Shown: positions 2,966 through 49,087 of the stretch, in pieces
Layout of the letters: every line of letters begins with the position of its first letter
Numbering within the stretch: the first letter of the stretch is position 1
From: Candidatus Pacearchaeota archaeon
GTDB lineage: Archaea > Nanobdellota > Nanobdellia > Pacearchaeales > GW2011-AR1
DNA: 64,000 nucleotides
Assembly: GCA_026414385.1 (NCBI GenBank)
Contig: JAOAJC010000001.1
Location: forward strand, 2,384 to 66,383
Reading direction: 5' to 3'
Notes under the pieces: model-generated
The model's database searches: none
What the model was told of the DNA's origin: nothing
Seen by the model: the letters and a program-made list of their open reading frames with translations, nothing else
Made by a program: the position numbers and the translations under genes

Positions 2966-2966
2966 A

Positions 2967-3701: not shown

Positions 3702-3888
3702 ATAATAACTTAGACAAAAGAATAATATAATTTTCTTTTTGTCTACCTTTTTCCTTTTACACAAAGTTAATAAATTGAAGATTTAAAAATGTTTCTATTA
3801 TGTTTAGGAAAAAGGAAAAACATTATTGATAGAAAGAATCTTATCAAAAATTTAGCAAATAAATAATAAAGTTTGAATCAAAAAAAGA

Positions 3889-4566
3889 TTATTTTTTTTC
3901 TGGAAGTTCTTCACTTTGTACTGCACCATGGGTTATGTTATTTAGTTTCGTATAAAAATCCATTTGCATGCCGGATGGAATATTAAGAATTACTGACAAA
4001 GAGCCATTTGGAAGCCAGTCCTCGCTTTCTTTAAAATCTTTTAAGATACCATAAACTTGTCCGGTGTATTGTGGCGGGATAGTAAGTTTAATTCTTTTTG
4101 TTTCTATCCTTATAGGTAAGATTGTTTGTATCTTTGTTATTAAATCTTGCATTTGTTGTTCTGCTGGCCTTGAATCAAAATTAAAATGAACTTCTTCTGC
4201 GGCCCTTCTTATTCTTTCTTCTGTATAAGGTCTGCCATTCTGATCAACTGCGTTCTTAACGACAAGATTAATTACTTGTTTTATTTTTGATTCTTTTTCA
4301 GCATCTCGAAATTCTTGGGTTTTTTGAACTTCTCCAGAAACAATAATTTTTTTTGCAATTTCATATAAATCTGTTGTTCCAAATGCCTCTTTTAAATCAG
4401 AAGAAGGGGCGACGTTTCCTTTTTTTATATCTGTATAAACTTGTGGTGAGTCAAGAGCAGAAATTATATCTCCTTTTCCAGATTTAACTTTAAGAGCTTC
4501 GTCTAAATCGACTCTTATCTCATAGGTTTTTCCTTTTATTTTTAATCTTGCCATAACTTTTGCCAT
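3889..4566 (-). CDS. sdo1: Ribosome maturation protein SDO1/SBDS homolog
   Basis: 225 aa with an SBDS-like N-terminal domain (KGKTYEIRVDLDEALKVKSGKGDI). Conserved neighbour of psmA and the exosome genes in archaea. Confidence 0.75.
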   Translation of the reverse strand: MAKVMARLKIKGKTYEIRVDLDEALKVKSGKGDIISALDSPQVYTDIKKGNVAPSSDLKEAFGTTDLYEIAKKIIVSGEVQKTQEFRDAEKESKIKQVINLVVKNAVDQNGRPYTEERIRRAAEEVHFNFDSRPAEQQMQDLITKIQTILPIRIETKRIKLTIPPQYTGQVYGILKDFKESEDWLPNGSLSVILNIPSGMQMDFYTKLNNITHGAVQSEELPEKK

Positions 4567-15715: not shown

Positions 15716-16414
15716 TTATTTCCTCCTTCCTGTGCGTCTTGGCCTTAGATGCCCGACTTTTGCGCCTGCAGGAGCATTTCTCTTTGCAATTTTTGATTTA
15801 ATTCTTTTTCCTCTGCCAGAACCAAATGGATGGTCTACAATATTCATCTTTACTGCAGATGTTCTTGGCCAGAGTTTGTTTCTTGTTTTCATTTTATAAA
15901 ATTTCCTTCCTGCTGTCATAAATGGCTTTAAAACTCTGCCACCACCAGCGATTATTCCAAGGGTTGCTCTACAATTCCCGTCAAATATTACTTCTTTTTT
16001 GTTTGGCATAATTAACGAAACTTTATTGTTCTCAAGTTTTTTTGAAACAATTGCGAAAGAACCGCTTGTCCTTATAATTTTTCCTCCATCTCCAGGATTT
16101 CTTTCAATATTATAAACATTTGAACTGACTGGGATGTTTTTTAACATTAAAATATTTCCATCTTTTATTTCATTTCCACCAACCATTATTTTTTGTCCTT
16201 CAAAAGCGTTGTTAAAAGCAGGAATGAAGAAAATTTCTTTTCCTAACTTTGCTTTTATTAAAGGCGCTGAATGCGCTGCAGAGTGAATTATTTTTTGTAT
16301 TTCTGCTTCGCCTTCACCTTGGGGATATTGAATTTTATAAATAAAGGATTTTTTCTTTGCCTGATAGGTTAGGCTTCCATGTCCTCTCGCTTGTGAGATT
16401 ATTCTTTTTCCCAT
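15716..16414 (-). CDS. rpl2: 50S ribosomal protein uL2
   Basis: IVDHPFGSGRGKRIKSKIAKRNAPAGAKVG is the uL2 C-terminal signature. Confidence 0.9.
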   Translation of the reverse strand: MGKRIISQARGHGSLTYQAKKKSFIYKIQYPQGEGEAEIQKIIHSAAHSAPLIKAKLGKEIFFIPAFNNAFEGQKIMVGGNEIKDGNILMLKNIPVSSNVYNIERNPGDGGKIIRTSGSFAIVSKKLENNKVSLIMPNKKEVIFDGNCRATLGIIAGGGRVLKPFMTAGRKFYKMKTRNKLWPRTSAVKMNIVDHPFGSGRGKRIKSKIAKRNAPAGAKVGHLRPRRTGRRK

Positions 16415-16418
16415 TTTA

Positions 16419-16661
16419 TTATATCATCCCAAGTTTAGTTGCTACATCAATTGCTGGATTCTCCTTTTTTAATTTGACATAGACAAATTTTTTGTTTTGC
16501 CTGATAAGAGTTCTTATTTTTTCTACTTTTATTGCGAACAATTTTTCTATTTCTTTTTTAATTTCTGTTTTTGTTAGGTTTCTATCTGTTTCGAACAAAA
16601 GCGTATTTTCTAAATCAATTAATTTTACTGCTTTTTCTGTTGTTATTGGCTTAAGCAACAT
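16419..16661 (-). CDS. rpl23: 50S ribosomal protein uL23
   Basis: KPITTEKAVKLIDLENTLLFETD is uL23-like. Confidence 0.85.
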   Translation of the reverse strand: MLLKPITTEKAVKLIDLENTLLFETDRNLTKTEIKKEIEKLFAIKVEKIRTLIRQNKKFVYVKLKKENPAIDVATKLGMI

Positions 16662-17430
16662 TTTTATTTTCCTCCAAATCTTTTATTGCTTTTTTAGTAT
16701 AGATTGTTAATCTTCCTAAAGGGTATAAATCCGAAATTGATAATTCGTTTGATTTAACAATATCAATTCCTTTAAATTTAGCATGTTCATCTTTCCCTAT
16801 TACTATTAAAAGTCCGGCATTTGATTTGTATTTTCTTCCTCTTGCTTTGCCTTTTCCTGCTCTAACTTTTTTGTTTTTCATTGCTATTGAAAATGCACTT
16901 CCAAAAATCTTTTCTAATGAAGCAATCAAATCTTTTGTTTTTGAAGGTAGTTCCTCTATAACATAAGGAGGATTAATTTCTTTTAGAGAAGAATATCTTG
17001 ATAGGATAATTTGTTTGTTTGCCGTTGATGCAATTGCAGAAGCAATTGCCAATTTAATTTCGTTTTTGTTTATCTTTTTTAATTTTTTTATTAATTTGGG
17101 AGGGTGGGCTCTTCTTCCACCACGAACAGAGGAAACCTCTGCAGCAATCCAATAAAATTGGTTTCCGCGCCTCCACATTTTTTTTCTTGGGACTCTGGAA
17201 ATGCCTTTTCCATAAGAACCTTTCCATTTGTGCCTTCTTTTTGAGATTGTGCCGGAGGCAGAGTGCCTTTTCCCTGCTTCTGCAAAAGGAGCATATGGTT
17301 GAATTTCCTTTGTTGCTTCAAATAACTTTGCGCAAATATCTTCTCTTATTTTTGATGAAAATATTTCTGGAAGAGAAATTTCTTCTTTTTTAGTTCCGGC
17401 TGAGGAATATAAAGTAGTTTTTATTGTCAT
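16651..17430 (-). CDS. rpl4: 50S ribosomal protein uL4
   Basis: 259 aa, conserved position between rpl3 and rpl23. uL4-like GRRAHPPK motif. Confidence 0.85.
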   Translation of the reverse strand: MTIKTTLYSSAGTKKEEISLPEIFSSKIREDICAKLFEATKEIQPYAPFAEAGKRHSASGTISKRRHKWKGSYGKGISRVPRKKMWRRGNQFYWIAAEVSSVRGGRRAHPPKLIKKLKKINKNEIKLAIASAIASTANKQIILSRYSSLKEINPPYVIEELPSKTKDLIASLEKIFGSAFSIAMKNKKVRAGKGKARGRKYKSNAGLLIVIGKDEHAKFKGIDIVKSNELSISDLYPLGRLTIYTKKAIKDLEENKNVA

Positions 17431-18374
17431 GTTAGTGATATAAATTCATATTTTAGTTTTGATTGAGATTTTGTTTTTCTAAAAGAAGGAGTTAATAAAA
17501 TTGCTCTTTTTTGCGGGCCTTGAACAGAACCTTTTAGAATAAGGTAATTTGATTTAATTTTTCCAAAATGTGGGAAGCCTTCGTTAGGATTAATGTTTTT
17601 TTCTGTAATTGAGCCAAATGAAATAACTTTTGAATTATATTGAACTCTTGTAAAAAATCCTAATTGTCCTGCTTGAGCAACTCTAAAAGAAGTGTGGGCA
17701 GGATGCCATGGGCCTAATGTTCCGGGGCGCCTAACTCCTTTTTCAGTTTTATGTGATTTTTTTCCTATACCGAATCTCGCTATTGGACCAGAAGTTCCCT
17801 TCCCTTTTGTAATGCCCCTTAAATCTAAAAGAGGGAATTTAAGAAAATCTTTTAATGTTATTTCTTTTCCAATTAAAGATTTAGCAAATTCTATTTTGTT
17901 TTTTGCTTCAATCGCTACTTCAACTAAATCAGGAGTTTTTTTAATTGATGTTTGCGAAGGAATGGAATAGACAATTAACCTTATATCATCATACTCTTTC
18001 GGAATTTCTTCATCAAATTTTTTAAGAGTTTTAGGAACATTAAGTTTTCTTTTTAATTCCTTGTCATTTGAAACAATAATGTCTTTTGTAACAATACCTT
18101 TATTATAAAATCTTATTGAGAAAACTTTCATATTTGGTGCTTCAAGAATTGTAACCGGAACATAAATTTTCTTATTTTGAGTTAGAGATTTTTCAGTCAT
18201 ATCCTTAACCAGAGCAGATGACATTCCTACCTTGTATGCAATAAATCCAAGTAAAGAATCAGTTTTTCCATCACCCTTAACTATTTTCCAATTTACTCTC
18301 GGGATAAGCTTATTAGTCCTCTTTCTAGGCCAAAACTGCAAACTTCCGTGCCTTGGACTTCGTTTTGTCGGCAT
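17427..18374 (-). CDS. rpl3: 50S ribosomal protein uL3
   Basis: MPTKRSPRHGSLQFWPRKR...ARFGIGKKSHKTEKGVRRPGTLGPWHP is archaeal uL3. Confidence 0.9.
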   Translation of the reverse strand: MPTKRSPRHGSLQFWPRKRTNKLIPRVNWKIVKGDGKTDSLLGFIAYKVGMSSALVKDMTEKSLTQNKKIYVPVTILEAPNMKVFSIRFYNKGIVTKDIIVSNDKELKRKLNVPKTLKKFDEEIPKEYDDIRLIVYSIPSQTSIKKTPDLVEVAIEAKNKIEFAKSLIGKEITLKDFLKFPLLDLRGITKGKGTSGPIARFGIGKKSHKTEKGVRRPGTLGPWHPAHTSFRVAQAGQLGFFTRVQYNSKVISFGSITEKNINPNEGFPHFGKIKSNYLILKGSVQGPQKRAILLTPSFRKTKSQSKLKYEFISLT

Positions 18375-18498
18375 TTTTATTAGTTATTAATTTTGTTTGA
18401 TAAGTGCAACTCAGACTTAGTTTAAACAACAGAAGCGTTATCAACGCATGTTGTTTTAGTTCTTTTGATTCTACACCAATATTTGATAAAAATAAGGG

Positions 18499-18506
18499 TT
18501 TATAAA
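18499..18506 (-). promoter_or_regulatory. Candidate BRE/TATA box (TTTATAAA) for the rpl3 to secY operon, about 125 nt upstream of the rpl3 start codon
   Basis: AAGGGTTTATAAATTTG in the 286-nt gap upstream of rpl3. This is the only strong archaeal TATA-like element in the gap. Confidence 0.3.
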
Positions 18507-18660
18507 TTTGATGGGGCGCGATTAAAAGCCAAAATTTATTGAGATTACCTAAAATCATACTCTCGAGATATTAGATATAATTGACTCGAGAAAAAGCCCT
18601 TATGAGGGGAGAAAAGAGAGTTAAATTATATTCAGATATCGGATAACTAAATAAGAGGGG

Positions 18661-19407
18661 TTATTCCTCTTGTTCTATTCTTGGGGCTAAAACAAAAGAT
18701 AAAAGAACATCGCCTGTTGAGAAGTTTATCCTCATCGGGTGATTGTCAGAGAAATTTATTGCTACTCTTGAAGATATTTTTGCCCCTTTTATGAATTTGT
18801 TTAGATATTCAAGAGAAAATCTTGCCATGCTGTTATCTGAATGAATTTCAACTTCGTCTGATGAGAATTCTATTTTTGCAGAGTTTAAACCCTTTGCTTC
18901 AATTACGAAAGAGGTTGGATTTGCCATAAATGTGCAAGCATCCGACACAATTGAACAATCCTCAATTGCTTCTACAAAAGACATTGAGTCCATTTTTATT
19001 ACAGATTTAAATTCCCATTGAGGCATCTCTTTTTCTTCACCCTCTATGTCTATCAATGCCAGATTGAATTCTCTTCTTATTTTGTCTTGGATACCTAATT
19101 TTAGAAGATTATCTTCACGAGATATTGTTAGAGAAGAACCTTGCAAACATCTTCGCAAGACGTTTTTTAAGTTTTCAAGATTAATGCCAAGAGTTTCGTC
19201 TTTTTCGACTTCAAATTGAGAAAAAAGAGAAGAAGGCATCTTAAAATAAACCATTGCTACATTAGCAGGATCTATTGCAGTTATGCTCATTCCGTCTTTT
19301 TTTATTTTTAACCTAACTTCTGTAACTAATTCTGAAATTATTGAAATAATGTCTGATAATAATCTTGGACTATCTAATTTTAATAACATAATTTTGGATA
19401 ACAACAA
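18661..19407 (-). CDS. pcna: DNA polymerase sliding clamp PCNA
   Basis: 248 aa. N-terminal MLLSKIM...VTEVRLKIKKDGMSITAIDPANVAMV and two-domain layout are typical PCNA. Confidence 0.85.
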   Translation of the reverse strand: MLLSKIMLLKLDSPRLLSDIISIISELVTEVRLKIKKDGMSITAIDPANVAMVYFKMPSSLFSQFEVEKDETLGINLENLKNVLRRCLQGSSLTISREDNLLKLGIQDKIRREFNLALIDIEGEEKEMPQWEFKSVIKMDSMSFVEAIEDCSIVSDACTFMANPTSFVIEAKGLNSAKIEFSSDEVEIHSDNSMARFSLEYLNKFIKGAKISSRVAINFSDNHPMRINFSTGDVLLSFVLAPRIEQEE

Positions 19408-19476
19408 CGACTTTTAAGGTTTGTTGTGATAAAATAGAATAGATAGATTATAAAAGAGAATTATTGTTAATAAAAG

Positions 19477-19490
19477 TGTGAATTTTCACA
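19477..19490. promoter_or_regulatory. Inverted repeat TGTGAA-tt-TTCACA in the divergent pcna/priS promoter region
   Basis: Perfect 6-bp arms with a 2-nt spacer in the 170-nt intergenic region between two divergent replication genes. Confidence 0.3.
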
Positions 19491-19576
19491 ACAAAAATAT
19501 CTAAATTAGAACAGAGTGAAATTTATTATTCTCAAAAAACAATAATTATTATAAGACGGCTAATTAATAAAATGAA

Positions 19577-21112
19577 ATGGGAAAAGAAGAGAGAATAAAG
19601 GCGATAACGCAATTGTATTATTCAAATCCAAAGGTTCTTGAAGCAATGATGATGTTTTCGATTGATAGGGAAGTTATTCCAAGATATTTTGAAATTTTTG
19701 GGAAAAGGCCTGACAAGATTCAATACCCTTCTGACATTCTTGGAATGGTGAAAAAAGGAGCAACCTCTTTTCATGTATCAGAAGAGTTGTGGAATGATGT
19801 TATGGCTTTAAGTTCTGATTTGAAAACGGAAGAGTTAAATGAGTTGAGAAAAGGATGGGATTTATTAATTGATGTAGATTCGCCTTTTCTTGATTTGTCA
19901 AAAATTGCAACAAAGTTATTATTAAATGCTTTAAAAGAACACGGAATTAAAAATTATGGATTAAAATTTTCTGGAAACAAAGGATTCCATATTATTGTTT
20001 CTAACAAGGCTTTTCCAAAAATTTATGATGGGAAGGAAACGAGAAAAATGTTTCCTGACTGGGCAAGAGCTATCTGTGAATATTTAACAAACTACATAAG
20101 AAAGGATTATTATTTGGAGGCAGGCAAAATATTAACAAACAGCGAAATAGAAAAAAACACTGGATTAAAGGAAGAGCCAAACATTATATGTAAAAAGTGT
20201 GGGAAAAAAGCGCGTGTTGGAGATTTGATTAATTTTAAATGTCCGGTGTGTAACATGGAAATATCAAGAAAAGATGTTAAGATAACAAAGAGAAAATTAA
20301 GATGTTTAAACGAAAAATGTGCAGGTTTTTTTGAAATCATAAATGAAAAAAAATATTATTATTGCGAGTATTGTAAAGAGAGGGATAATGAAAAAATGAA
20401 ATTAAATTCTGAAAAAAATCCTGAAAATTTTGAAGAATTAAGAGGAGTTAATGTTGAGAAGATTGCCAAATTAGATTTAGTGCTTGTTTCTCCAAGACAT
20501 TTATTTAGAATGCCATATTCTTTACATGAAAAGACGGCGCTTGCGAGCATTACAATAAAAGAGGAAGATATTGATAAGTTTATGCCGAGAGATGCAAATC
20601 CGTTAAGTGTGAAAATAATAGAGTTTATGCCAAACAATGAAGAAAATGAAGCAAAATATCTTTTGAGCAATGCAATAGAGTGGAAAAAAACGCAAGAAGA
20701 GACAAATGAAAATAGTTGGAAAAAAATTGATGAAAATGAATTTAGAGAGGTTGATTTTAGAAAAATAAAAGAAGAAATGTTTCCAGAATCTATAAAAAAA
20801 TTATTAAGAGGACTAAAAGACGGGAGAAAACGAGGGTTATTTGTATTAATTACTTTTTTGAGGGCGTTGAATTTTCCTGCAGATTATATAAATAAAAGAA
20901 TAAGAGAATGGAATAAATTGAATGACCCACCATTAAAAGAAGGGTATATTAAAGCACAAATTGATTGGCATCTAAAACAAAAGAAGAAAATATTACCACC
21001 CAATTATTCAAATGATGCATTTTATAAAGACATAGGATTAATTAATGAGATTCCTAAATTAAAAAACCCTCTTTCTGAGATTGCAAGAAAATTAAAGGAG
21101 AATAAAAAATAA
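19577..21112 (+). CDS. priS: DNA primase small (catalytic) subunit PriS with tandem Zn-ribbons and a C-terminal PriCT/PriL-CTD-like helical domain (possible fused primase)
   Basis: AEP catalytic motifs (DLLIDVDSPF, KFSGNKGFHIIV), eight Cys in two CxxC...CxxC ribbons, and a C-terminus GRKRGLFVLITFLRALNFPADYINKRIREWNKLNDPPLKEGYI matching the PriCT-1-type pattern. Confidence 0.75.
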   Translation: MGKEERIKAITQLYYSNPKVLEAMMMFSIDREVIPRYFEIFGKRPDKIQYPSDILGMVKKGATSFHVSEELWNDVMALSSDLKTEELNELRKGWDLLIDVDSPFLDLSKIATKLLLNALKEHGIKNYGLKFSGNKGFHIIVSNKAFPKIYDGKETRKMFPDWARAICEYLTNYIRKDYYLEAGKILTNSEIEKNTGLKEEPNIICKKCGKKARVGDLINFKCPVCNMEISRKDVKITKRKLRCLNEKCAGFFEIINEKKYYYCEYCKERDNEKMKLNSEKNPENFEELRGVNVEKIAKLDLVLVSPRHLFRMPYSLHEKTALASITIKEEDIDKFMPRDANPLSVKIIEFMPNNEENEAKYLLSNAIEWKKTQEETNENSWKKIDENEFREVDFRKIKEEMFPESIKKLLRGLKDGRKRGLFVLITFLRALNFPADYINKRIREWNKLNDPPLKEGYIKAQIDWHLKQKKKILPPNYSNDAFYKDIGLINEIPKLKNPLSEIARKLKENKK

Positions 21113-21184
21113 TAAAAAGATTTGGTTAATTTATTAAATTAAAATGATAGGGAATGTTTTTAAAGATGTAAGCTATATAATTTT

Positions 21185-23011
21185 ATGCGTAAAAGAGGAT
21201 ATGTTATCAGCATAATAATTGTTTTTGCAATATTAATGGCAAACTTTTCAATTGCTGCAACTAATGAGAGTGAGGTAGTTAGTGTTGATAAGGCTTATAA
21301 ATGCCTAAATGAGCAAATTAAAAAAGTTGGTTCAAATATCGGATTCCAAGACGCGATTTTTGCACAGCTTGCAATTGGTTCAGTAAAAGAAACAAGAGAA
21401 AAAATTGAGAGCGAAAAAAGTTCTACTGAAAATTGTTGGCCAAAAGCAGGATGTAAGATAAAAGAAACAGCACAGGTAATGTTGGCTTATGATAGGGTAG
21501 GAAAGAGCACTTCTGAAATAAGAAAATGGCTAATGTCAAAAAATGCGAGCGCAAGTGAGTTAATATGGTTTTTAGAAATTGATATAACAAACAAAGAAGT
21601 TTCAACATGTAGTTTGAAATACGATGGAGTTCAATATAGCATAAAAGTAAATGAGGAACAAAAAATATCTGGGAATGCTGGAAATTGTTTTGTAATTGCG
21701 AATAATGGTTATATGTTAAGAGTTAGCAATAATTGTATTGGAAAAGAGTTTGAAATATCTTGCGACAAAGATTTTGTAACAGCTATGATTTATCAATCAA
21801 GTACTGGAAAAACATTATTTATTCCGCCAAAAGCGACAGGCGCATCTGGTGGCGGGACAACAAAAGAAAAAGCTATTTCGCAATGTTTTAAGACAACAGG
21901 AGCAGGGTGCGATTATGAAGGGACATTATGGGCAGTCCTTGCTCTTGAAAAATTGGGCGAGGAGACAGATGCATTTTTACCATACCTTTATGCATTTGCT
22001 GATTCTAATAAAAGATATTTTCCATCTGCATTTTTGTACATGATTACAAGTGGTGAGGACCAATATGATTCTATAATTTCTTTGCAAAAACAAGGAAAAT
22101 ATTGGGAAATTGCGGGAAGTCCTTATAATAAATATTATGATAGCGCACTGGCGTTAATGGCATTAAGCAAAACGACATCGCAAGAGGCAGAAAACGCAAA
22201 AGCAAATTTATTAACAATACAAACTCCTGATGGGTGTTGGAATAATAACAATATAAGAGATAGCGGATTTATATTATATGCAGGGTTTACGAAGAGTGTT
22301 GGGAGAGAGGGTGGAGGAGAGGTTCCAAAATGCACTGCACCATTTTCATGTACAGGTTTATTTGATTGTGAAAAAGCTGGTGGGACAAGACAATATAATT
22401 ATGATTGTTCATCAGAGGGGGCTACAAAGATATGCTGTTCAATAAGTGTTGTTGAAGAAACTTGTAGTAAAAAGGGAGGGGTGTTATGTGGTGCAAATGA
22501 ACAATGCACTGGTAGAACAGAACCGTCAAAAGATGGAAGTTGTTGTATGAGTGGTTTTTGTGAAGAAATCCCGGTTGTAGAGGACTTGTGTAGTAAAGCG
22601 GGAGGGACGTGTAAATTTGTGTGTGAGGAAGGGGAAGAAAAAAGTAGCGAAACATGCGCAAACACAGAAGAAGTTTGTTGTGTTAAAAAAGGAACAAGCA
22701 TTTGGTTTTGGATTGTATTACTAATAATATTAATTGCACTAACAATAGTCGGGATTGTTTATAGAAATCAGCTAAGATTATTTTGGTTTAAAATTTGGCC
22801 AAAAATAAAAGAGAAATTCATGGGAAAGAAAGTTGAGAGTAAAGCTATGCCTACAACGCAACCAACAACAAAAGCCCCTATTATGACGCCACAAAGAATG
22901 ATGCCAAGGCCAGCTTATCCAATATCGCAAAGAAGTCCGGGAATAGCAAAATCTTCAAAGGAAAAAGAAATAGAAGAAACATTAAGAAAACTAAAAGAGA
23001 TGGGAAAATAA
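21185..23011 (+). CDS. Secreted membrane-anchored surface protein with a toroid-like domain and three Cys-rich modules
   Basis: N-terminal signal/TM. The N-terminal alpha-repeat domain has a QW-like motif (LLTIQTPDGCWNNN). Three tandem Cys-rich modules (C..GG..C......CC) precede a single TM (IWFWIVLLIILIALTIVGIVY) and a basic/Pro-rich cytoplasmic tail. Confidence 0.6.
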   Translation: MRKRGYVISIIIVFAILMANFSIAATNESEVVSVDKAYKCLNEQIKKVGSNIGFQDAIFAQLAIGSVKETREKIESEKSSTENCWPKAGCKIKETAQVMLAYDRVGKSTSEIRKWLMSKNASASELIWFLEIDITNKEVSTCSLKYDGVQYSIKVNEEQKISGNAGNCFVIANNGYMLRVSNNCIGKEFEISCDKDFVTAMIYQSSTGKTLFIPPKATGASGGGTTKEKAISQCFKTTGAGCDYEGTLWAVLALEKLGEETDAFLPYLYAFADSNKRYFPSAFLYMITSGEDQYDSIISLQKQGKYWEIAGSPYNKYYDSALALMALSKTTSQEAENAKANLLTIQTPDGCWNNNNIRDSGFILYAGFTKSVGREGGGEVPKCTAPFSCTGLFDCEKAGGTRQYNYDCSSEGATKICCSISVVEETCSKKGGVLCGANEQCTGRTEPSKDGSCCMSGFCEEIPVVEDLCSKAGGTCKFVCEEGEEKSSETCANTEEVCCVKKGTSIWFWIVLLIILIALTIVGIVYRNQLRLFWFKIWPKIKEKFMGKKVESKAMPTTQPTTKAPIMTPQRMMPRPAYPISQRSPGIAKSSKEKEIEETLRKLKEMGK

Positions 23012-23063: not shown

Positions 23064-23996
23064 ATGAAAAAGATTGTGCTTTTAGTATTTTTTGTTTTTC
23101 TATCTAGCAGTGTGTTCGCCATAAGCGTTGATATAAAAAATAATTATTTACCAAGGCAAACAGTTATAGCGAAGATATCTGGTGAGGTTTTAGATATTTT
23201 AACAAAAGATAATATTCAATTCAGGAGAGGACATGTTGCGATTCCATTAGAACATGATTTAAAAAAAATAGGGGAAGAGTATTATATTTGGTTTATAACT
23301 CCATTTTTAGAGAACAACTATACGATTATAATAAAAAATATTGCTACAACTGTTGGCGGTTTTGTGAAAAGAATAGATTATGAAAAAAATTTCTCTGTGA
23401 TTGGAAATGCGAGCTATTCAATAAAGCCAGGTTTTGTTTATGCGACAAAAGATTTTGAAATAGCAGTGTTATTATATGAAGATGAAAGAAAGCAAATAAA
23501 AGTTAATTTTTTAGATGAACAGGAGATTGTTTTAAAGCCAGGAAATAATTTATTAAAATTTTCAATAGGAAGCATAAATGAGAGTGGATTTTATAACTTG
23601 ACAATAGGAGAGTATAATGTTCCAGCATACATAATTCCAAACAAGACATTTTATAAAAAGATAAATGAAACAAATGTTACGGCAAAAAACATCATTATTG
23701 AATATGAAATTAAAAATAAGACAAAAATAAACGAGACAAAAAAATTTGAAGTGTATTGTTATGAATATCCTGGGAAAATATGTGGAAATGAAGAAATTTG
23801 TGATGGTGAGACAAGAGAAACAATTGACGGATTTTGTTGTATTGGAACATGTAAGGGAAAAGAAAAGCAAAGTTCTGCATTATGGGGGTATTTATTAATT
23901 ATTGTTGTGGTTGCAATTTTAGGATATATTGGATGGAAATATTATAAAACAAAAGAAGAAAGAAAAAATATATTGCAAAAAAATGTGGCAAAATAA
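23064..23996 (+). CDS. Secreted surface protein with a Cys-rich juxtamembrane module and C-terminal TM anchor
   Basis: Signal peptide MKKIVLLVFFVFLSSSVFA. Module CYEYPGKICGNEEICDGETRETIDGFCCIGTCKG aligns with the modules of the upstream gene, then a TM and a KKTKEERKN tail. Confidence 0.55.
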   Translation: MKKIVLLVFFVFLSSSVFAISVDIKNNYLPRQTVIAKISGEVLDILTKDNIQFRRGHVAIPLEHDLKKIGEEYYIWFITPFLENNYTIIIKNIATTVGGFVKRIDYEKNFSVIGNASYSIKPGFVYATKDFEIAVLLYEDERKQIKVNFLDEQEIVLKPGNNLLKFSIGSINESGFYNLTIGEYNVPAYIIPNKTFYKKINETNVTAKNIIIEYEIKNKTKINETKKFEVYCYEYPGKICGNEEICDGETRETIDGFCCIGTCKGKEKQSSALWGYLLIIVVVAILGYIGWKYYKTKEERKNILQKNVAK

Positions 23997-24544: not shown

Positions 24545-25225
24545 TTAAATCCTTCTCAAAATGAGATAAATAAGAATTAAAACAAAAATAATCAAAAATG
24601 CGTAAAAAAAATAAAACCACAATTTTAGTTTGTGGGTTGTTTGAGTATTTGTTTTTTTATTGAGATGGATTTTTTCGTTGCTTTTCGGTTGTTCTTCGTC
24701 TATTTTTTTTGGCATCTCTTCTTTTAGTGGAACGAAATCAGAAATAGAAGTTGTTAATTTTGGTGATTCGGATTTGGAAAAAGAATCTAATGATTGAGTT
24801 GGGGAGGAATTTGTTGTTTTTGATTCTTGTTTTTTTTCATTTGGTAAAATTGTTATCGGATTGCAAACTTCTGAAAAAGAGGAAGAGTTTGTTTTTCTTA
24901 ATCTCGCACAAATATTTGTTGCTCCGACATAATATGATTTAATCTTAAACTCTTTTGTTTTTGGAAAAACTTCTTTTAGATAATAGAATGGGTTGTTCCA
25001 TTTACCATCATAATAGATTTCGGAAAATTCTTTTGAATCATCATTTATAAATATTTTAACATCATAATTATTTGTTATAGAGGAAGATGTTGAAATAGAA
25101 ACAGAAAAGCTTTCATTAACGATTGATGATGATGGAGATATAAATTGAAATTCTAATGAAGATGATAGATTAATGGAAATTATCAAAATAATTAAATAAA
25201 GAACATTAATAACCATAGCTTTCAT
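24545..25225 (-). CDS. Ser/Thr-rich secreted protein with N-terminal signal and C-terminal TM anchor
   Basis: Start refined to MKAMVINVLYLIILIISINL (signal). Ser-rich ectodomain and a C-terminal TM LWFYFFYAFLIIFVLILIYLIL. Immediately downstream of the nuclease gene on the same strand. Confidence 0.45.
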   Translation of the reverse strand: MKAMVINVLYLIILIISINLSSSLEFQFISPSSSIVNESFSVSISTSSSITNNYDVKIFINDDSKEFSEIYYDGKWNNPFYYLKEVFPKTKEFKIKSYYVGATNICARLRKTNSSSFSEVCNPITILPNEKKQESKTTNSSPTQSLDSFSKSESPKLTTSISDFVPLKEEMPKKIDEEQPKSNEKIHLNKKTNTQTTHKLKLWFYFFYAFLIIFVLILIYLILRRI

Positions 25226-25952
25226 AGTGAGCAATTCCTCCGTTGTTATCAAATAGATATAAGCTATCCCTATCATTATTCCATATGTCAGTTTTTGAAT
25301 TCCAAAAAATATCTGTTGAATTATCTTTACCTATATTAGAATGGAGAGTAATTTTTGAAAAACTAATGTTTTTGAATGAATAGATCTTTCTACTCTCGTC
25401 CTTTATTGTAAAGCCAGTCATTGAAATGTTGCAATTGTTTATTATTATTATTTTTTCTTCTTTCGGGTTTATGTCTGTGCTAAAACAATTATAATAAATA
25501 GAAGGTTTCCATATTCCCAAATGATTTTTAATTGCGTTTTTTTCTGCATTTGAAAATAATTTTAGCTCTGATTCTTGAACAAGAAATTTTGATGCAAGGC
25601 CAAGTTCAACAATCCTTAAATTTAAGTATTCGGGAACATAAATTCTTGCAAGATATCTGTTATATTTATCTATGTCAATTATTTCTATATTGACTGACTT
25701 ATTTTCATAAGATTTAAGAAAACCTATTGCTAAATTTGATATTTGTAGATTTTTTTCTGGGGAGTTGATATTAATGAGACGGATTGTTCTATTATCTTCT
25801 AAAATTAGAGTATCGCCATCAATAACTCTTGAAATTACCACACTTTCTATTTTTTTATTTTTTTCGGAAATTAGAAGTGAAGAAAGGTGAAAAAGTGCAA
25901 AAACAAATAAAGTTATAAAAAATGCTAATAAAAAAGCGTATTTTTTATTCAT
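25206..25952 (-). CDS. Membrane-anchored extracellular thermonuclease (staphylococcal nuclease fold) fused to a lamin-tail domain (LTD)
   Basis: N-terminal TM anchor. SNase motifs VIDGDTLILEDNRTIRLININSPE, DKYNRYLARIY and KNHLGIWKP. C-terminal region ...IINNCNISMTGFTIKD...IWNNDRDSLYLFDNNGGIAHYESYGY fits the LTD pattern (W-N-N-x-G-D...L.D..G..VD...Y). Confidence 0.7.
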   Translation of the reverse strand: MNKKYAFLLAFFITLFVFALFHLSSLLISEKNKKIESVVISRVIDGDTLILEDNRTIRLININSPEKNLQISNLAIGFLKSYENKSVNIEIIDIDKYNRYLARIYVPEYLNLRIVELGLASKFLVQESELKLFSNAEKNAIKNHLGIWKPSIYYNCFSTDINPKEEKIIIINNCNISMTGFTIKDESRKIYSFKNISFSKITLHSNIGKDNSTDIFWNSKTDIWNNDRDSLYLFDNNGGIAHYESYGY

Positions 25953-29101: not shown

Positions 29102-30625
29102 ATGGTTCAAAAGATAAATTTAAATCCTGCAATTCCAAAGCTTCAAAAATTTGAAGATAAAAAAAAGATAGATGTTAGATATGCCCTTATTTCCCCATAT
29201 GCATTCGCGCATATCTATTGGAGAGAGGACATAGGCGAGGTAGTTTATGAGATTGAAGAACCGGTATTAAATGAAAAGGAAAGAGCTTCTCTTGAAAAAT
29301 TAGAAAATGCAATGCTTGAACTGATAAACATAAATGTGGCTGTTGAAAAAACATTGGAAGCGACAACAGAATATATTGATAAAACAGCAAAATTACTTAT
29401 TGCAGAACTTAATTTAAATATTAGTGATGAAACTTACGAAAAATTGTTTTATTATTTGTTTAGAAACTTTATAGGGCTAAATGAGATTGAACCATTATTG
29501 AGAGATTATTATATTGAAGATATTGAGTGTAACGGGGTGAATACCCCGGTTTATGTCGTGCATAGGGTTTTTAGAAATTTAAGAACAAATTTGACTTTTA
29601 AAGACATGGATAAAGCAGCGAGCTTTGTAGAGAAGCTTGCGCAGAGATGCGGAAGATATATTTCTTATGCACAACCATTGCTCGATGGAACATTGCCTGA
29701 TGGTTCAAGAGTAAATGCAACATATACAAAAGAGATAACTTCAAAAGGGCCAACATTTACAATAAGAAAATTTACGAAAATACCTTGGACTCCAACGCAA
29801 TTAATAGCATTTAATACGATGAGTGCTGAAATGGCTGCGTATTTTTGGATTCTTATCCAATATAAATCGAGTATTGTTGTTGCGGGAGGAACTGGTTCGG
29901 GAAAAACTACTTTCTTAAATGCGATGGCTTTTTTTATTCCGCCAGAGGCAAGAGTAGTCAGCATAGAAGATACGAGAGAAATAAACTTACCAAGAGAAAA
30001 TTGGTTACCTTCTGTTGCGAGGCCATCAATTGGGGTTGGAAAGGTTGGCGAAATTGATTTGTTTGAATTATTAAAAAGTTCATTTAGACAAAATCCAGAT
30101 TATATTATTGTGGGAGAAGTGAGGGGGAAAGAAGCATTTGTGCTTTTTCAAGGAATGGCTTCTGGACATGCTTCTTTGAGTACAATGCACGCAGATTCTG
30201 TTGAAACAATGGTTAGAAGATTAGAAACTCCGCCAATAGAACTCTCTCCAACATTAGTAAATACACTTGATTGTGTTGCTGTTGCTGCGAAAGCATTGAT
30301 AGGGCAGCAAGAGTCAAGAAAAATAAGAGAAGTTTCTGAAATTGTTGAAGTTAATAAAGATGGCAGTGTTATAATAAATACCCCTTTAATTTGGGATCCG
30401 AAAACAGACAAATTTCTTTTTAGAAAAGAGAGCAAAGTATTTGAAAAAATAGCAGGAAGATTTGGAATGACTATTGATAATTTGTACAAAGAATTCACGA
30501 TAAGAACAAAATTACTTTACGAATTAGCAAGAAGAAAAGTGTTTGGATTTGAAGAGATACAAAGAATAATAAACGATTATTATAAAAATCCTGCAGAAGT
30601 GTTAAGTAGATATGGAATAGGTTAA
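29102..30625 (+). CDS. Type IV pilus/secretion assembly ATPase (FlaI/TadA/PilB family)
   Basis: Walker A VAGGTGSGKTTFLNAM, Asp box, Walker B DYIIVGEVRGKEA, and His box GHASLSTMHADS. Confidence 0.85.
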   Translation: MVQKINLNPAIPKLQKFEDKKKIDVRYALISPYAFAHIYWREDIGEVVYEIEEPVLNEKERASLEKLENAMLELININVAVEKTLEATTEYIDKTAKLLIAELNLNISDETYEKLFYYLFRNFIGLNEIEPLLRDYYIEDIECNGVNTPVYVVHRVFRNLRTNLTFKDMDKAASFVEKLAQRCGRYISYAQPLLDGTLPDGSRVNATYTKEITSKGPTFTIRKFTKIPWTPTQLIAFNTMSAEMAAYFWILIQYKSSIVVAGGTGSGKTTFLNAMAFFIPPEARVVSIEDTREINLPRENWLPSVARPSIGVGKVGEIDLFELLKSSFRQNPDYIIVGEVRGKEAFVLFQGMASGHASLSTMHADSVETMVRRLETPPIELSPTLVNTLDCVAVAAKALIGQQESRKIREVSEIVEVNKDGSVIINTPLIWDPKTDKFLFRKESKVFEKIAGRFGMTIDNLYKEFTIRTKLLYELARRKVFGFEEIQRIINDYYKNPAEVLSRYGIG

Positions 30626-30687
30626 AATGTGAAAATTTCTTAAGCCATATTGATTAAATTTAATAAGATTGAAAAATAAATATAATT

Positions 30688-30849
30688 ATGAAAAAAGAGG
30701 ACATTAATTTAATTGCCAGAGTATTGACGGACATGAAAGATTCTTTAACTGAAATTGAAAATGCGTTGAAAAATAAAGACATTGGAAAATTAAATGAAGC
30801 AAAATCAAAGATTTTGAGGTTGCAAATAGAGATAGATAAAAGAATATGA
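30688..30849 (+). CDS. Small coiled-coil ORF (53 aa) between the ATPase and the membrane platform gene
   Basis: MKKEDINLIARVLTDMKDSLTEIENALKNKDIGKLNEAKSKILRLQIEIDKRI, with a stop codon overlapping the next ATG (ATGA). Below the ORF-track size cutoff. Confidence 0.3.
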   Translation: MKKEDINLIARVLTDMKDSLTEIENALKNKDIGKLNEAKSKILRLQIEIDKRI

Positions 30850-32138
30850 TAACCCAAATAGAACAACTAAAAAAGAACATAGATGGTGAAATAAAGATAT
30901 TAGGAGAGATTTCTAATTTATTTGTTAGGTTTGAAAATAGCACTGGAGAAGAAAGAAGAATAATTCTTAGTACAATTGATTCACTATCTAAAAATATGAA
31001 GATGATAAACCGAGCGATTCCAAAAATTCTTGAGAGTATTGTCATTGAGGAAAGAAAAGAAAAGAAAGAAGACAAACTTGAGAGAATAGAAGAAGGAATT
31101 GCGGAGGGGGTTGTTTTGAAACTAGAGGACAAGGAAAAATTCTTAACAGAATTAAACATAAATGAAGAGTTTATTAAAAAATTAAAGAAAAAGAAAAGTG
31201 AGGGTGAAGAAAAATATGAAGAATTCAAAAAAGCAAGAGGTTATTTGAAACTTGCAAATAGGTTTTTTTTAGAAAGTTCTATTAGTATGGTAAAGAAAGG
31301 ATATTTCAGTGATTTATACAATGATTTAAAAAAATCAAATTTAAACATTCTTCTTGAAGGATATGTTGCGATGATGCTTTTAACAAGCGTTATTGCGTTT
31401 TGTTTGGGGGTTTTTTTGTTTGTTTTTTTTATGTTATTTGATATTAGTTTTTCGATGCCTTTAATAAGTGCCTATAAAGGCGGGTTTTTTCCGAGATTTT
31501 CAAAAATAATATGGCTACCTTTAATTATGCCATTGATAACTTTTATAGCACTCTATATTTACCCATCAACAGAGGCAAAATCAATTGAAAAAAATATAAA
31601 CGAAGAATTACCATTTGCTGTGGTGCATATGAGTTCTATATCAGGTTCTGGGATAGCGCCTGTGGAAATTTTCAAAATTATTGGGAATAGCAAAGATTAC
31701 CCATATCTAAAAAGAGAGTTAAGAAAAGTGTTAAACCAAATCAACATATATGGATATGATTTAGTTAGCGCATTAAATAATGTCTCAAAAAGTACACCAA
31801 GTGCAAAATTAAGTGCCTTGATGGCTGGATTATCAACTACAATAAATACTGGTGGAAATTTGAGCGATTTTTTTCAGAAAAGAGCTGATTCATTGCTATT
31901 AGAGTACAAGTTAGATAAGGAAAAATTCATAAAAGTTGCAGAGACATTTATGGACATTTACATAAGCGTCGTAATTGCTGCACCAATGATAATTATGTTG
32001 TTGTTAATAATGATATCAATATCGGGATTACAAACAGGATTCTCGCCATATCAATTAACATTCATCACAATAGCAGGAGTAGCTTTTGTTAATATTATAT
32101 TTTTAGCATTTTTACAAACAAAGAAAGGAATTGCATAA
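30846..32138 (+). CDS. Pilus assembly membrane protein, FlaJ/TadC-like, N-terminal half (T2SS-F domain)
   Basis: Cytoplasmic coiled-coil N-terminus, then TM helices and a T2SSF-like domain (ELPFAVVHMSSISGSGIAPVEIFKIIG...LSALMAGLSTTINTGGNLSDFF). Confidence 0.7.
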   Translation: MITQIEQLKKNIDGEIKILGEISNLFVRFENSTGEERRIILSTIDSLSKNMKMINRAIPKILESIVIEERKEKKEDKLERIEEGIAEGVVLKLEDKEKFLTELNINEEFIKKLKKKKSEGEEKYEEFKKARGYLKLANRFFLESSISMVKKGYFSDLYNDLKKSNLNILLEGYVAMMLLTSVIAFCLGVFLFVFFMLFDISFSMPLISAYKGGFFPRFSKIIWLPLIMPLITFIALYIYPSTEAKSIEKNINEELPFAVVHMSSISGSGIAPVEIFKIIGNSKDYPYLKRELRKVLNQINIYGYDLVSALNNVSKSTPSAKLSALMAGLSTTINTGGNLSDFFQKRADSLLLEYKLDKEKFIKVAETFMDIYISVVIAAPMIIMLLLIMISISGLQTGFSPYQLTFITIAGVAFVNIIFLAFLQTKKGIA

Positions 32139-32986
32139 TGAAAATAAATAGAACAAAATTGCTTGGAATTATAGCAGGAATAATTGTGATAGTTGTTGAT
32201 TTAATATTTTTCTTTGGTGAAAAAGCATTTATGTTTATCATCGGCATAGCAATTGTTGTAGCATTAACACCTTTTATAATTGAAATAGTAAGGGAGGGAA
32301 AAAGGGCAGAGGATATCGAAGAGAAATTTCTTGAATTTTCAAGAAATCTTGCAGAAAGCGTAATGACTGGAACTCCGATAAGTAAAAGTATTGTGAATAT
32401 ATCAAAAAAGAATTATGGTGCTTTGACTCCCCACGTGCAGAAATTATCAAATCAAATTCAATTAGGAATACCATTAAGTAAGGCATTGCAAATATTTGCA
32501 AATGATATTGATAATGTTGTTATAACTAGAGCAATAGCACTAATAAGTGAGGCTGAAAAAGCTGGTGGAGAAATTGATTATATTCTCGATTCTGTTGCTA
32601 AATCAATTGCAGAAACAGAAAAACTAAAAAAAGAAAGAAAATCTGCAATATTTAATCTTGTAATGCAAGGATATATTATATTCTTTATATTTATAGGAAT
32701 AATGCTCGTAATGGAGTTTAAAATATTGCCACTTGCGACAGGAATTGGTGGGGGGGGCATTTCTGGAGTAGAAATTGGTGGAATGATACCTGTTGGAGGA
32801 CAAACAATGAATCCTGAAGAGATATCAAATTTATTCTTATACTTGCTTTTAACACAAGGATTTTTTGCAGGATTGACTATTGGAAAATTGAGCGAGGGTT
32901 CTATAAAAGCTGGGATTAAACACTCGTTTATACTTGTTATTGCAGCATTTTTAATATCAACGGGAGTAAGAGCTTTGTTTGTTTAA
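32138..32986 (+). CDS. Pilus assembly membrane protein, FlaJ/TadC-like, C-terminal half (second T2SS-F domain)
   Basis: TAATG overlap with the upstream half. TM, then T2SSF-like IEEKFLEFSRNLAESVMTGTPISKSI...LISEAEKAGGEIDYILDSVA, then TMs. Confidence 0.65.
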   Translation: MKINRTKLLGIIAGIIVIVVDLIFFFGEKAFMFIIGIAIVVALTPFIIEIVREGKRAEDIEEKFLEFSRNLAESVMTGTPISKSIVNISKKNYGALTPHVQKLSNQIQLGIPLSKALQIFANDIDNVVITRAIALISEAEKAGGEIDYILDSVAKSIAETEKLKKERKSAIFNLVMQGYIIFFIFIGIMLVMEFKILPLATGIGGGGISGVEIGGMIPVGGQTMNPEEISNLFLYLLLTQGFFAGLTIGKLSEGSIKAGIKHSFILVIAAFLISTGVRALFV

Positions 32987-33046
32987 AAACATAATTGAAC
33001 TTTGTTATAAAGCAAATTTAATAAACTAAAAAAAATTAAGAAAGAT

Positions 33047-33745
33047 ATGAAAAAGAGAGGGGCGAGCAATATAGAGTTTATACTTGCATTTGTATTGTTT
33101 GTCGGATTTGTAGCAACGATTTTTTATTTTTTTAATCCTATTAGAAATGTTAATTATATGGAATCATCTTTAAACTATGTTATTGGAGCGATAGAGAAAA
33201 ATGTAACTAGTGAGATTGATGAAGTTGGGATATTAATTAAAGGTTCAAGTTCGGGGGGCAATATTGCAAAGGTTAAGATAAAAGACATTTCAAATGATAA
33301 AAAAGTTGATGCAAGAGATTATTATGGATTTCGATTTGATGCAAAAAGAAATGGTGAAGAAGTTTATATTGATTTAAAAAATAGAGGAACAAATAACAAT
33401 TTTATAATATTTAGGTTTAATGAGGAATTTAATGAGGAAACAATTTCTAGTGGCCAAGAAAGAGAATATACAATATCAACAAAAGATTCAAGAAAAATTG
33501 TTTCTGAAAAAAAAATAAAGCAATTAAGCGAGAGATACGCAAATAATTATTTAAAATTGAAAGAAGAACTAAAAATTCCTGCGAACATTGATTTTTCATT
33601 TTCGTTAGAATTGCAAGACAGAAAAATAGAAGTAACAAAAGATATTCCTGCAAGAGCAGAAGTATTTGCAAAGGGAAAATTAATTGAAGTATTAAAAGAA
33701 AATGAGGTGACTGAAACCGGATATTTAACAATAAGAATATGGTAA
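33047..33745 (+). CDS. Pilin-like/minor pilin protein (class III signal, Glu+5)
   Basis: MKKRGASNIEFILAFVLFVGFVATIFYFF. If cleaved after RG, Glu is at +5. Confidence 0.5.
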   Translation: MKKRGASNIEFILAFVLFVGFVATIFYFFNPIRNVNYMESSLNYVIGAIEKNVTSEIDEVGILIKGSSSGGNIAKVKIKDISNDKKVDARDYYGFRFDAKRNGEEVYIDLKNRGTNNNFIIFRFNEEFNEETISSGQEREYTISTKDSRKIVSEKKIKQLSERYANNYLKLKEELKIPANIDFSFSLELQDRKIEVTKDIPARAEVFAKGKLIEVLKENEVTETGYLTIRIW

Positions 33746-34167
33746 ATAAAAAAGGAATAGTTAGAATAATTGAAGCCAGTGTTGCAATATTAATTATATT
33801 GTCTGTAGTATTAGTGGTTTCTGAAAGAAAAAAATTGCAAATTGAGAGCGATTTAAGTGAGAGAATAACTCCATTGTTAGAAGAAATAGCAAAAAATGGG
33901 AGTATGAGAGAAGCGATAATAAGAGATAATGAAACGAATAATGATGCTGAAAATCTTGTTATGGATTTTTTGAAACAAAGAATAAAAGAGACATTTATAG
34001 GTTATAATGTAACAATATGTAACTATACTCTTGTTTGTGGATTAAGAACATATCCAACAGAAGCAAAAGGCAACATTTATTCTGGAGAGAGAGTGATTAG
34101 CACAACATTAGAAAATAGACAGTTCAATCCAAAAAAAATAAAGATTTTCTTATGGATTAAAAGATAA
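33739..34167 (+). CDS. Pilin-like protein (class III signal)
   Basis: MVNKKGIVRIIEASVAILIILSVVLVV. Confidence 0.45.
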   Translation: MVNKKGIVRIIEASVAILIILSVVLVVSERKKLQIESDLSERITPLLEEIAKNGSMREAIIRDNETNNDAENLVMDFLKQRIKETFIGYNVTICNYTLVCGLRTYPTEAKGNIYSGERVISTTLENRQFNPKKIKIFLWIKR

Positions 34168-34299
34168 AACTGGTTTGCAATAGATTAAATTAAAAAATTT
34201 TGCATAAAATAGAATAACTTAAATCTTATGTTTGGGCGCGCATTTGTATAGATTAAGGAGTACAGGTAATTTTATAAACTCCATTTCTTTAAAAAAGAT

Positions 34300-35907: not shown

Positions 35908-35949
35908 AGGAATCAGTAATTTTTTAAACATAATTTTATTAATAAAATA

Positions 35950-45092: not shown

Positions 45093-45120
45093 TTTGTTTT
45101 TATTTTAGAACTTTTTTAGT

Positions 45121-45774: not shown

Positions 45775-45833
45775 TTTTATGAGAATAATCAAAAGATATA
45801 AAGACGCGGGGTATTTAAGTTTTATGATTTTTC

Positions 45834-49042: not shown

Positions 49043-49087
49043 CATAAAAACCAAAGCAAAACAAAATTATTTATAGATTATTGTAAT

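Follow-up and report, generated by a model that had tools for sequence, protein, structure and literature searches.

A probable single-chain replicative primase of a Pacearchaeota archaeon, with an eight-cysteine insertion and without the cysteine ligands of the PriL iron-sulfur cluster

The locus studied here raises the question of which kind of primase is encoded by an open reading frame (ORF) at positions 19577 to 21112 of a 64,000-nucleotide stretch of DNA from a Candidatus Pacearchaeota archaeon (NCBI GenBank assembly GCA_026414385.1, contig JAOAJC010000001.1, positions 2,384 to 66,383 of the forward strand; the whole stretch is referred to as the window), and of what has become, in this primase, of the [4Fe-4S] cluster of the large subunit PriL. 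We find that the gene is very probably the cell's replicative DNA primase, in the single-chain form typical of DPANN cluster 2, in which the catalytic subunit PriS is joined with PriL's C-terminal domain (CTD). We read it as the replicative primase because the nine PriS and three PriL residues known from NEQ395 (a monomeric PriS-PriL primase found in Nanoarchaeum equitans) all have counterparts here, at matching spacing and with complete or nearly complete conservation, and because a profile of the CTD matches PriL of Pyrococcus abyssi, relatives pass the Pfam threshold for the primase large subunit and a PCNA gene adjoins in most related genomes. As part of this explanation, and judging from the residues at the ligand positions, it is also highly likely that no [4Fe-4S] cluster is present in the PriL-like domain, where each of the four ligand cysteines has been substituted.

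The gene is real and conserved. Its ORF opens with ATG and, because an in-frame TAA lies at 19568-19570, position 19577 is the first possible start. The product (the window protein) is identical to the NCBI entry 'hypothetical protein N3D20_00185 [Candidatus Pacearchaeota archaeon]', which is encoded on a contig of 76.8 kb. We found more than 4000 homologues in the database, the best 120 of which show 55-78% identity over 95-100% of the query and are 503-569 amino acids long (one has 495), and therefore the ORF is not due to chance. Relatives are encoded in at least 561 species genomes, and upon examining the best 80 genome loci nearly all were labelled Pacearchaeota, Woesearchaeota or Nanoarchaeota, with one Parvarchaeota and a few plain 'archaeon'. 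The host is a member of DPANN cluster 2 (Pacearchaeota), which, with Undinarchaeota, is where primases of the NEQ395 type occur, and the G+C content of the window is ~30% overall and uniform at ~0.27-0.34. Conservation figures refer throughout to the 120 close homologues and tests against Pfam families to 32 aligned homologues; locus, synteny and ligand counts were made in the 80 closest GTDB species genomes, counts of the insertion in 124 full-length sequences (123 representatives at 50% identity plus the window protein) and cysteine counts in the CTD in 137 full-length representatives. The gene and its parts are the following:

19577..21112, forward strand: the complete gene of a monomeric PriS-PriL(CTD) primase (ORF of 511 amino acids plus stop, exact database match, full-length homologues)
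19577..20167, forward strand: catalytic domain of archaeo-eukaryotic primase (AEP) type, first part, residues 1-197 (PF01896, conservation, Foldseek)
20168..20446, forward strand: eight-cysteine insertion, predicted to be all-beta, residues 198-290 (cysteine positions, conservation, beta strands in the AlphaFold2 model)
20447..20653, forward strand: second part of the catalytic domain, residues 291-359, with D300, H308 and R311 in LVSPRHLFRMPYSLHEKT (conservation, NEQ395 spacing)
20654..20776, forward strand: predicted linker helix (360-388) and low-confidence hinge, residues 360-400 (AlphaFold2 model)
20777..21109, forward strand: PriL-CTD-like helical domain without Fe-S ligands, residues 401-511 (R417, R419 and F422 retained)

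An earlier note on this locus, made from the sequence alone, had recognised a canonical AEP catalytic core, and this is borne out: the window protein contains an AEP catalytic domain with the AEP fold. Pfam DNA_primase_S (PF01896) matches residues 106-322 and, with 31.4 bits, passes its curated threshold of 26.8, and it is matched by all 32 aligned homologues. AEPs are defined by motif I (hhhDhD/E), motif II (sxH) and motif III (hD/E) (PMC10250227), which we observe as LLIDVD (D99, D101), SGNKGFH (S132, K135, H138) and LDLVLV (D300), respectively. D99, D101, S132, H138 and D300 are invariant, and H66, K135, H308 and R311 are invariant or at least 90% conserved. When compared with human PriS, residues 106-149 of the window protein align by phmmer with human residues 132-176, and the motif III region (291-359) aligns to human residues 311-401. 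The AlphaFold2 (AF2) model of the full protein, built from 120 sequences, has a mean predicted local distance difference test (pLDDT) score of 86 and a predicted template modelling (pTM) score of 0.68. Foldseek retrieved for this model 49 PDB matches at E<=0.001, all of those listed being AEP primases or LigD-type primase-polymerases, among them Prim-PolC, human and yeast Pri1, the LigD polymerase and Pyrococcus PriS (E from 1e-6 to 1e-4). A PHROG scan gave a partial viral primase match, covering motifs I-II only. Furthermore, relatives of 880-1020 amino acids (P0127, P0129, P0162, P0174, P0226 and P0235) carry a LAGLIDADG intein inside the PriS catalytic domain, inteins being typical of essential replication genes.

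The earlier note had also likened the protein to the fused PriS-PriL primases of DPANN archaea, and the likeness extends from the architecture of NEQ395 to its catalytic and initiation residues. NEQ395 is highly active, and mutagenesis has assigned catalytic or nucleotide-binding roles to H58, D87, D89, S119, K122, H125, D194, H202 and R205 of its PriS domain, with mutation of any of these nine residues reducing or abolishing activity (PMC10250227). Mapped through the residue numbers of that study and the family alignment, they correspond in the same order to H66, D99, D101, S132, K135, H138, D300, H308 and R311 of the window protein; the spacing is the same or nearly the same, that of D-8-H-3-R being identical. 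Additionally, R301, R303 and F306 of NEQ395 are needed for priming and not for extension (PMC10250227), and these correspond to R417, R419 and F422. The three residues lie at the same offsets from the first cysteine column (+12, +14 and +17), in an invariant DG(R/K)KRGLF motif, with R419 invariant and F422 at least 90% conserved. In NEQ395 the [4Fe-4S] ligands are C289, C364, C376 and C384, and single cysteine mutants with a disrupted cluster still prime in vitro (PMC10250227).

The C-terminal motif quoted in the earlier note, GRKRGLFVLITFLRALNFPADYINKRIREWNKLNDPPLKEGYI, was found at residues 416-458, and the C-terminal ~110 amino acids are predicted to be helical, as had been claimed. The Foldseek search with the full model gave matches to the catalytic domain only, and the CTD was therefore modelled separately; residues ~401-511 alone reach a pLDDT of 96.7, and the predicted fold is that of a PriL-CTD. 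The linker that precedes them is predicted to contain a 29-residue helix, with the pLDDT falling to 53 in residues 381-390. The CTD had been said to follow a PriCT-1/PriL-CTD-like pattern, for which a profile search was proposed as the check; the PriL half of this claim stands, at the level of the family, and the PriCT half stays below threshold. Searches with the window protein as a single sequence (Pfam, NCBIfam, PDB sequences) gave no PriL or PriCT signal, and a full-length family profile retrieved nothing but PriS from the PDB, PriL being seen once a CTD-only profile included cluster-bearing relatives. The profile of 34 family CTDs matches P. abyssi PriL (9F26_B) with E=4.9e-7, in two collinear blocks that bear the cysteines, FPPC and PPNC...C.PD..C..NP. 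Moreover, DNA_primase_lrg (PF04104) is matched at E<=1 by 16 of the 32 homologues, at model positions ~61-172, and four relatives exceed its cut-off of 22.4 bits (P0053 with 24.0, P0129 with 29.3, P0174 with 31.0 and P0235 with 25.0 bits), the cluster-bearing ones passing it clearly with 25-31 bits. PriCT_1 (PF08708) does not match the window protein and reaches E<=1 in six of the 32 homologues, the best of them (P0047) scoring 18.4 bits against a cut-off of 21.1. Overall, the C-terminal domain is very probably a homologue of the PriL-CTD. The N-terminal, PriS-binding domain of PriL is absent, as PF04104 matches extend over only ~61-191 of the 266 model positions and residues 346-400 are linker.

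Upon examining the cysteines of this domain, we observe that the window protein has none after residue 266. At least four are present in the CTD of 99 of the 137 representatives, the ligands being retained in ~73% of family representatives, and in this class four columns are 88-99% cysteine; these columns align to S405, Y477, I489 and ~492 of the window protein, which has a shortened loop from the third ligand position to the fourth. The relative P0123, of the same architecture and with 44% identity, keeps FPPC...PPNC...GVCRPDELC where the window protein reads FPES...PPNY...GLI--NEIPK. Among the 120 close homologues the CTD has no cysteine in 108 cases and a single one in 12, and the ligand set is missing in 79 of the 80 closest species genomes, the remaining one having PPNC with four cysteines. 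With a neighbour-joining tree and Fitch parsimony we counted ~11 state changes for the cluster cysteines and ~15 for the insertion, the tree being crude and the counts meaningful as orders of magnitude only. We lean, with some reserve, towards the wider conclusion that a large clade of Pacearchaeota/Woesearchaeota type, comprising at least 79 of the 80 closest species genomes in this sample, depends for chromosome replication on a single primase devoid of any Fe-S cluster, and that, judging from the same crude tree, the ligands were lost about ten times in the monomeric primases of DPANN archaea. In the searchable literature we found no mention of natural loss of the cluster ligands or of a cysteine-rich insertion in DPANN primases, and both may still have been noted; the words iron, cysteine and zinc are all absent from the text of a 2026 preprint on the group (10.64898/2026.06.17.729505). 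The family of fused primases is already known, and the eight-cysteine insertion and the ligand loss are apparently undescribed.

As for the insertion, the earlier note had described the core as followed by eight cysteines in the place of a canonical four. The eight cysteines are present (205, 208, 222, 225, 243, 248, 263 and 266; an extra one, C167, is not conserved), but they are located inside the core, in a stretch of ~93 residues within the catalytic domain between motif II (S132-H138) and motif III (D300). They also do not stand in for a canonical four, the two positions being non-equivalent: the zinc knuckle of canonical PriS, which we take to lie just after motif I, would be at another site, and at that site the window protein has no zinc knuckle, the D101-S132 segment being without cysteine or histidine. 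The distance from H138 to D300 is 162 residues, compared with 69 between H125 and D194 of NEQ395, and the AF2 model shows the insertion as beta strands with a pLDDT of 77-89.

C205, C222, C225, C243 and C248 are invariant, and C208, C263 and C266 are conserved in 83%, 95% and 89% of the close homologues, respectively. C263 is lost only where C208 is lost too, and nine of the 13 losses of C266 coincide with loss of C208. When counted across the 124 full-length sequences, the insertion is absent in 77, has six to eight cysteines in 46 and only four in P0201. Two relatives, P0201 and P0232, have a single four-cysteine ribbon at the insertion site, and the cysteines of P0201 are the inner four (C222, C225, C243 and C248); the number of Cys4 sites in the insertion therefore ranges across the family from none to two. 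Because of these patterns of co-loss, and because P0201 retains the inner four alone, the simplest and most likely reading is that the eight cysteines form two nested Cys4 sites, an inner one of C222/C225/C243/C248 and an outer one of C205/C208/C263/C266. On the same simplest reading, the inner site would be an autonomous ribbon and the outer site would clamp the base of the insertion, which is probably a two-zinc module, zinc being the presumed metal. When the insertion profile was compared with solved structures, generic zinc-ribbon proteins alone were matched, at E>=0.013, and because the similarity is of this generic kind we assign the insertion to no named domain. We considered and rejected the idea that the insertion makes up for the missing cluster: 35 representatives have both the insertion and the cluster cysteines, and we find the insertion alone in 16, the cluster cysteines alone in 62 and neither in 12, and since all four combinations are present, the insertion is no simple replacement for the cluster ligands.

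These parts suggest a mechanism by analogy with NEQ395 and with heterodimeric primases. The catalytic domain would bind two metal ions through D99, D101 and D300, and H66, S132, K135, H138, H308 and R311 would hold the elongating nucleoside triphosphate. The PriL-like domain, tethered by the long helix and flexible hinge, would swing in, and its R417, R419 and F422 would grip the template junction together with either the initiating nucleotide or the primer's 5' end, a contact that would make dinucleotide formation possible and set the length of the primer. NEQ395, modelled with a 30-residue linker helix and a flexible loop, has its primer length set by the length of the linker, and its two domains fail to complement each other in trans (PMC10250227); linker length probably determines primer length in the window protein as well. 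The single chain would be expected to prime de novo. The cavity of the cluster is presumably occupied by side chains such as that of the invariant Y477, and the double Cys4 insertion may stabilise the catalytic domain or contact the template.

Several points weigh against this account. Searched alone against Pfam, the window protein has no PF04104 or PriCT match at E<=10, and the Foldseek search with its CTD was not significant, with PriX ranked first and a best E of 0.07, so the homology of its own CTD would rest on family profiles and a predicted structure. The nested pairing of the cysteines is read only from co-loss patterns; rubredoxin-like iron in place of zinc may be compatible with the eight cysteines, and one homologue is labelled 'rubredoxin' by a source. 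Lastly, the search for a second primase spans 64 kb of this genome, and a PriL- or PriX-like partner could be encoded elsewhere.

This last point leads to the alternative that survives best, and which we nevertheless consider improbable, namely that the window protein is the catalytic subunit only, that a separate PriL- or PriX-like partner, possibly Fe-S-bearing, is encoded elsewhere, and that the CTD is an accessory or a remnant. The near or complete invariance of R417, R419 and F422 and of the motif around them argues for a working domain. The earlier note had seen no adjacent priL, and we likewise found no second AEP or PriL-like domain in six frames of the 64-kb window, none among 30 other large ORFs scanned with Pfam, and neither a PriL-like domain nor a separate priS in the 6-kb flanks of the 80 related loci. 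The literature reports the fused gene as the only primase in DPANN cluster 2 lineages, and the failure of the NEQ395 domains to act in trans also speaks against a divided enzyme. We infer that the window gene is the only primase gene of its genome.

The genomic surroundings bear on the two other alternatives. Upstream of the primase gene and divergent from it lies

18661..19407, reverse strand: PCNA (PCNA_N and PCNA_C Pfam matches)

with an AT-rich spacer of 169 bp (19408-19576) between the two genes. This head-to-head pair occurs in 71 of the 80 related genomes, usually 150-330 bp apart, and genes for ribosomal proteins L3 and L4 follow just past PCNA in the window. Inverted repeats in the spacer were considered as a signal and set aside, being short, AT-rich and of a kind that looks like chance.

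A repair or damage-tolerance primase-polymerase of the LigD, Prim-PolC or PrimPol type is a still less likely identity. The best full-model Foldseek matches are indeed to mycobacterial Prim-PolC (E ~1e-6) and LigD polymerase domains, and Pfam LigD_Prim-Pol matches 31 of the 32 homologues, all below its cut-off. This fold is, however, common to all AEPs, and PF21686 scores 16.4 bits with the window protein and 24.5 bits with the best homologue against a cut-off of 27.4. There is no ligase, Ku or nuclease neighbour; PCNA and the ribosomal protein cluster are found instead, in 71 of the 80 genomes. Furthermore, the protein has a fused PriL-CTD, which is needed for de novo initiation, and the gene is present in the 561 or more species genomes noted above and is, according to the literature, the sole primase of these lineages. 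Least likely of all is an origin from an integrated plasmid or virus whose replication primase would pair an AEP with a helix bundle of PriCT type (examples are pRN1, pTN2, RepB' and NrS-1), as the gene sits between PCNA plus the ribosomal protein operon on one side and conserved lineage-specific genes on the other, with synteny in most of the 80 species, no integrase or mobile-element gene occurs among the scanned neighbours, the G+C content is uniform, the PriL match is far stronger than the PriCT match, and the published phylogeny indicates vertical inheritance (preprint 10.64898/2026.06.17.729505). The replicative single-chain primase thus remains the explanation that we favour.

Downstream of the primase gene, 21185-23011 (forward strand, 608 amino acids) and 23064-23996 (forward strand, 310 amino acids) encode proteins with a hydrophobic, signal-like N-terminus, a C-terminal membrane anchor and cysteine-rich repeats (CxxxGGxC...CC-type), neither having a Pfam match; the former follows the primase in 72 and the latter occurs in 54 of the 80 related loci. 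In the region ~16000-22000, GC skew and coding strand flip near 18-20 kb, with a minimum of cumulative skew at ~18 kb. The strand flip (genes on the reverse strand before it, on the forward strand after it) coincides with the divergent PCNA/primase pair and may mark a replication origin or a mere change of strand; the scanned ORFs did not include an Orc1/Cdc6 gene.

Elsewhere in the window, an exosome operon on the reverse strand (1458-4566) comprises Rrp42-like (1458-2267), Rrp41-like (2264-2965) and Rrp4 (2967-3764) genes, with SBDS adjoining (3889-4566); exosomes of DPANN cluster 2 are without Csl4 (Dombrowski et al.). A second reverse-strand group (43212-49054) encodes an FttA/aCPSF1-type beta-CASP nuclease (43212-45092), a proteasome subunit (45121-45837), a Rad50-like ATPase (45834-47903) and an Mre11-like phosphoesterase (47900-49054). 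On the forward strand, 29102-30625 encodes a secretion ATPase like those of type IV pili or archaella, and 30846-32986 two membrane proteins of the T2SSF family; beyond them, in the region to 38649, come several large ORFs with no or weak Pfam matches, including an 899-amino-acid protein with a weak PKD match, and the whole of 29102-38649 may be a surface-appendage locus. The reverse-strand gene at 25206-25952 has a staphylococcal-nuclease domain and a sub-threshold lamin-tail-domain match; its product may be a nuclease that is secreted or displayed at the surface, as would suit an organism that scavenges DNA. Finally, the large helicase encoded at 61207-63804 on the forward strand is of the Lhr type and contains the domains DEAD, Helicase_C, WH_Lhr and DEAD_assoc.

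The fusion itself is established knowledge for DPANN archaea, and it is the variant that may give this locus its value. Published work calls the [4Fe-4S] cluster in the large subunit of primases highly conserved and its contribution 'enigmatic' (PMC10250227; PMC12770985), and in vitro both NEQ395 and Sulfolobus PriSLX prime after its removal. Clades in which apparently the only primase is without the ligands would extend this dispensability from the test tube to living cells. If the reading is right, they would demonstrate naturally and in vivo that cells can prime without a PriL cluster that is otherwise near-universal. They would also supply comparative data on the purpose of the cluster, in which its loss could be set against the absence of genes for Fe-S assembly, exposure to oxygen or reduction of the genome. 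Cluster-bearing relatives such as P0123 would be matched controls for biochemistry. The lineage-specific double Cys4 insertion might then have assumed a structural or template-handling role, and the insertions with none, one or two sites would be a second and lesser case of modules being added to a minimal primase.

When the window protein is set against known primases, its closest counterpart is the fused family of DPANN cluster 2, or 'Nanostetteria' (PMC3914693; PMC7414124; preprint 10.64898/2026.06.17.729505). Iyer et al. 2005 (cited in PMC3914693) pointed out that PriS and PriL are fused in N. equitans, Raymann et al. 2014 widened the observation to nanosized archaea, and Dombrowski et al. 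2020 showed the fusion to be a synapomorphy of Undinarchaeota and DPANN cluster 2, including Pacearchaeota. The preprint uses the fusion as a marker of the 'Nanostetteria' clade and presents a primase tree that includes Pacearchaea and indicates vertical inheritance. Like NEQ395, the window protein is one chain from the same host clade, with an N-terminal PriS domain, a linker helix of ~30 residues, a hinge and a C-terminal PriL-CTD. Unlike NEQ395, which has 393 amino acids, it has 511, with the eight-cysteine insertion between motifs II and III, and none of its four cluster positions is still a cysteine, the third and fourth being joined by a shortened loop.

In comparison with the canonical PriS/PriL pair (P. 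abyssi 9F26, human PRIM1/PRIM2), the two parts are covalently joined and lack PriL's N-terminal domain and, very probably, the [4Fe-4S] cluster. The cysteine-rich insertion takes the place of the helical subdomain that canonical PriS has between motifs II and III, and the zinc knuckle that presumably follows motif I in canonical PriS is missing. The mobile-element AEPs (pRN1 ORF904, pTN2 PolpTN2, RSF1010 RepB' and phage NrS-1; PriCT_1) differ in that the window protein has its sequence affinity to cellular PriL and its gene a chromosomal housekeeping context with PCNA and vertical inheritance within DPANN. PriX of Saccharolobus (Sulfolobus) solfataricus (4WYH; 5OF3 chain C) resembles the CTD of the window protein in the absence of a cluster. 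PriX, however, is a separate third subunit beside a cluster-bearing PriL in Crenarchaeota, whereas the domain described here forms one chain with PriS and apparently has no second PriL-like domain beside it; because the four cysteines persist in close relatives, P0123 among them, its loss of the cluster would be independent of PriX.

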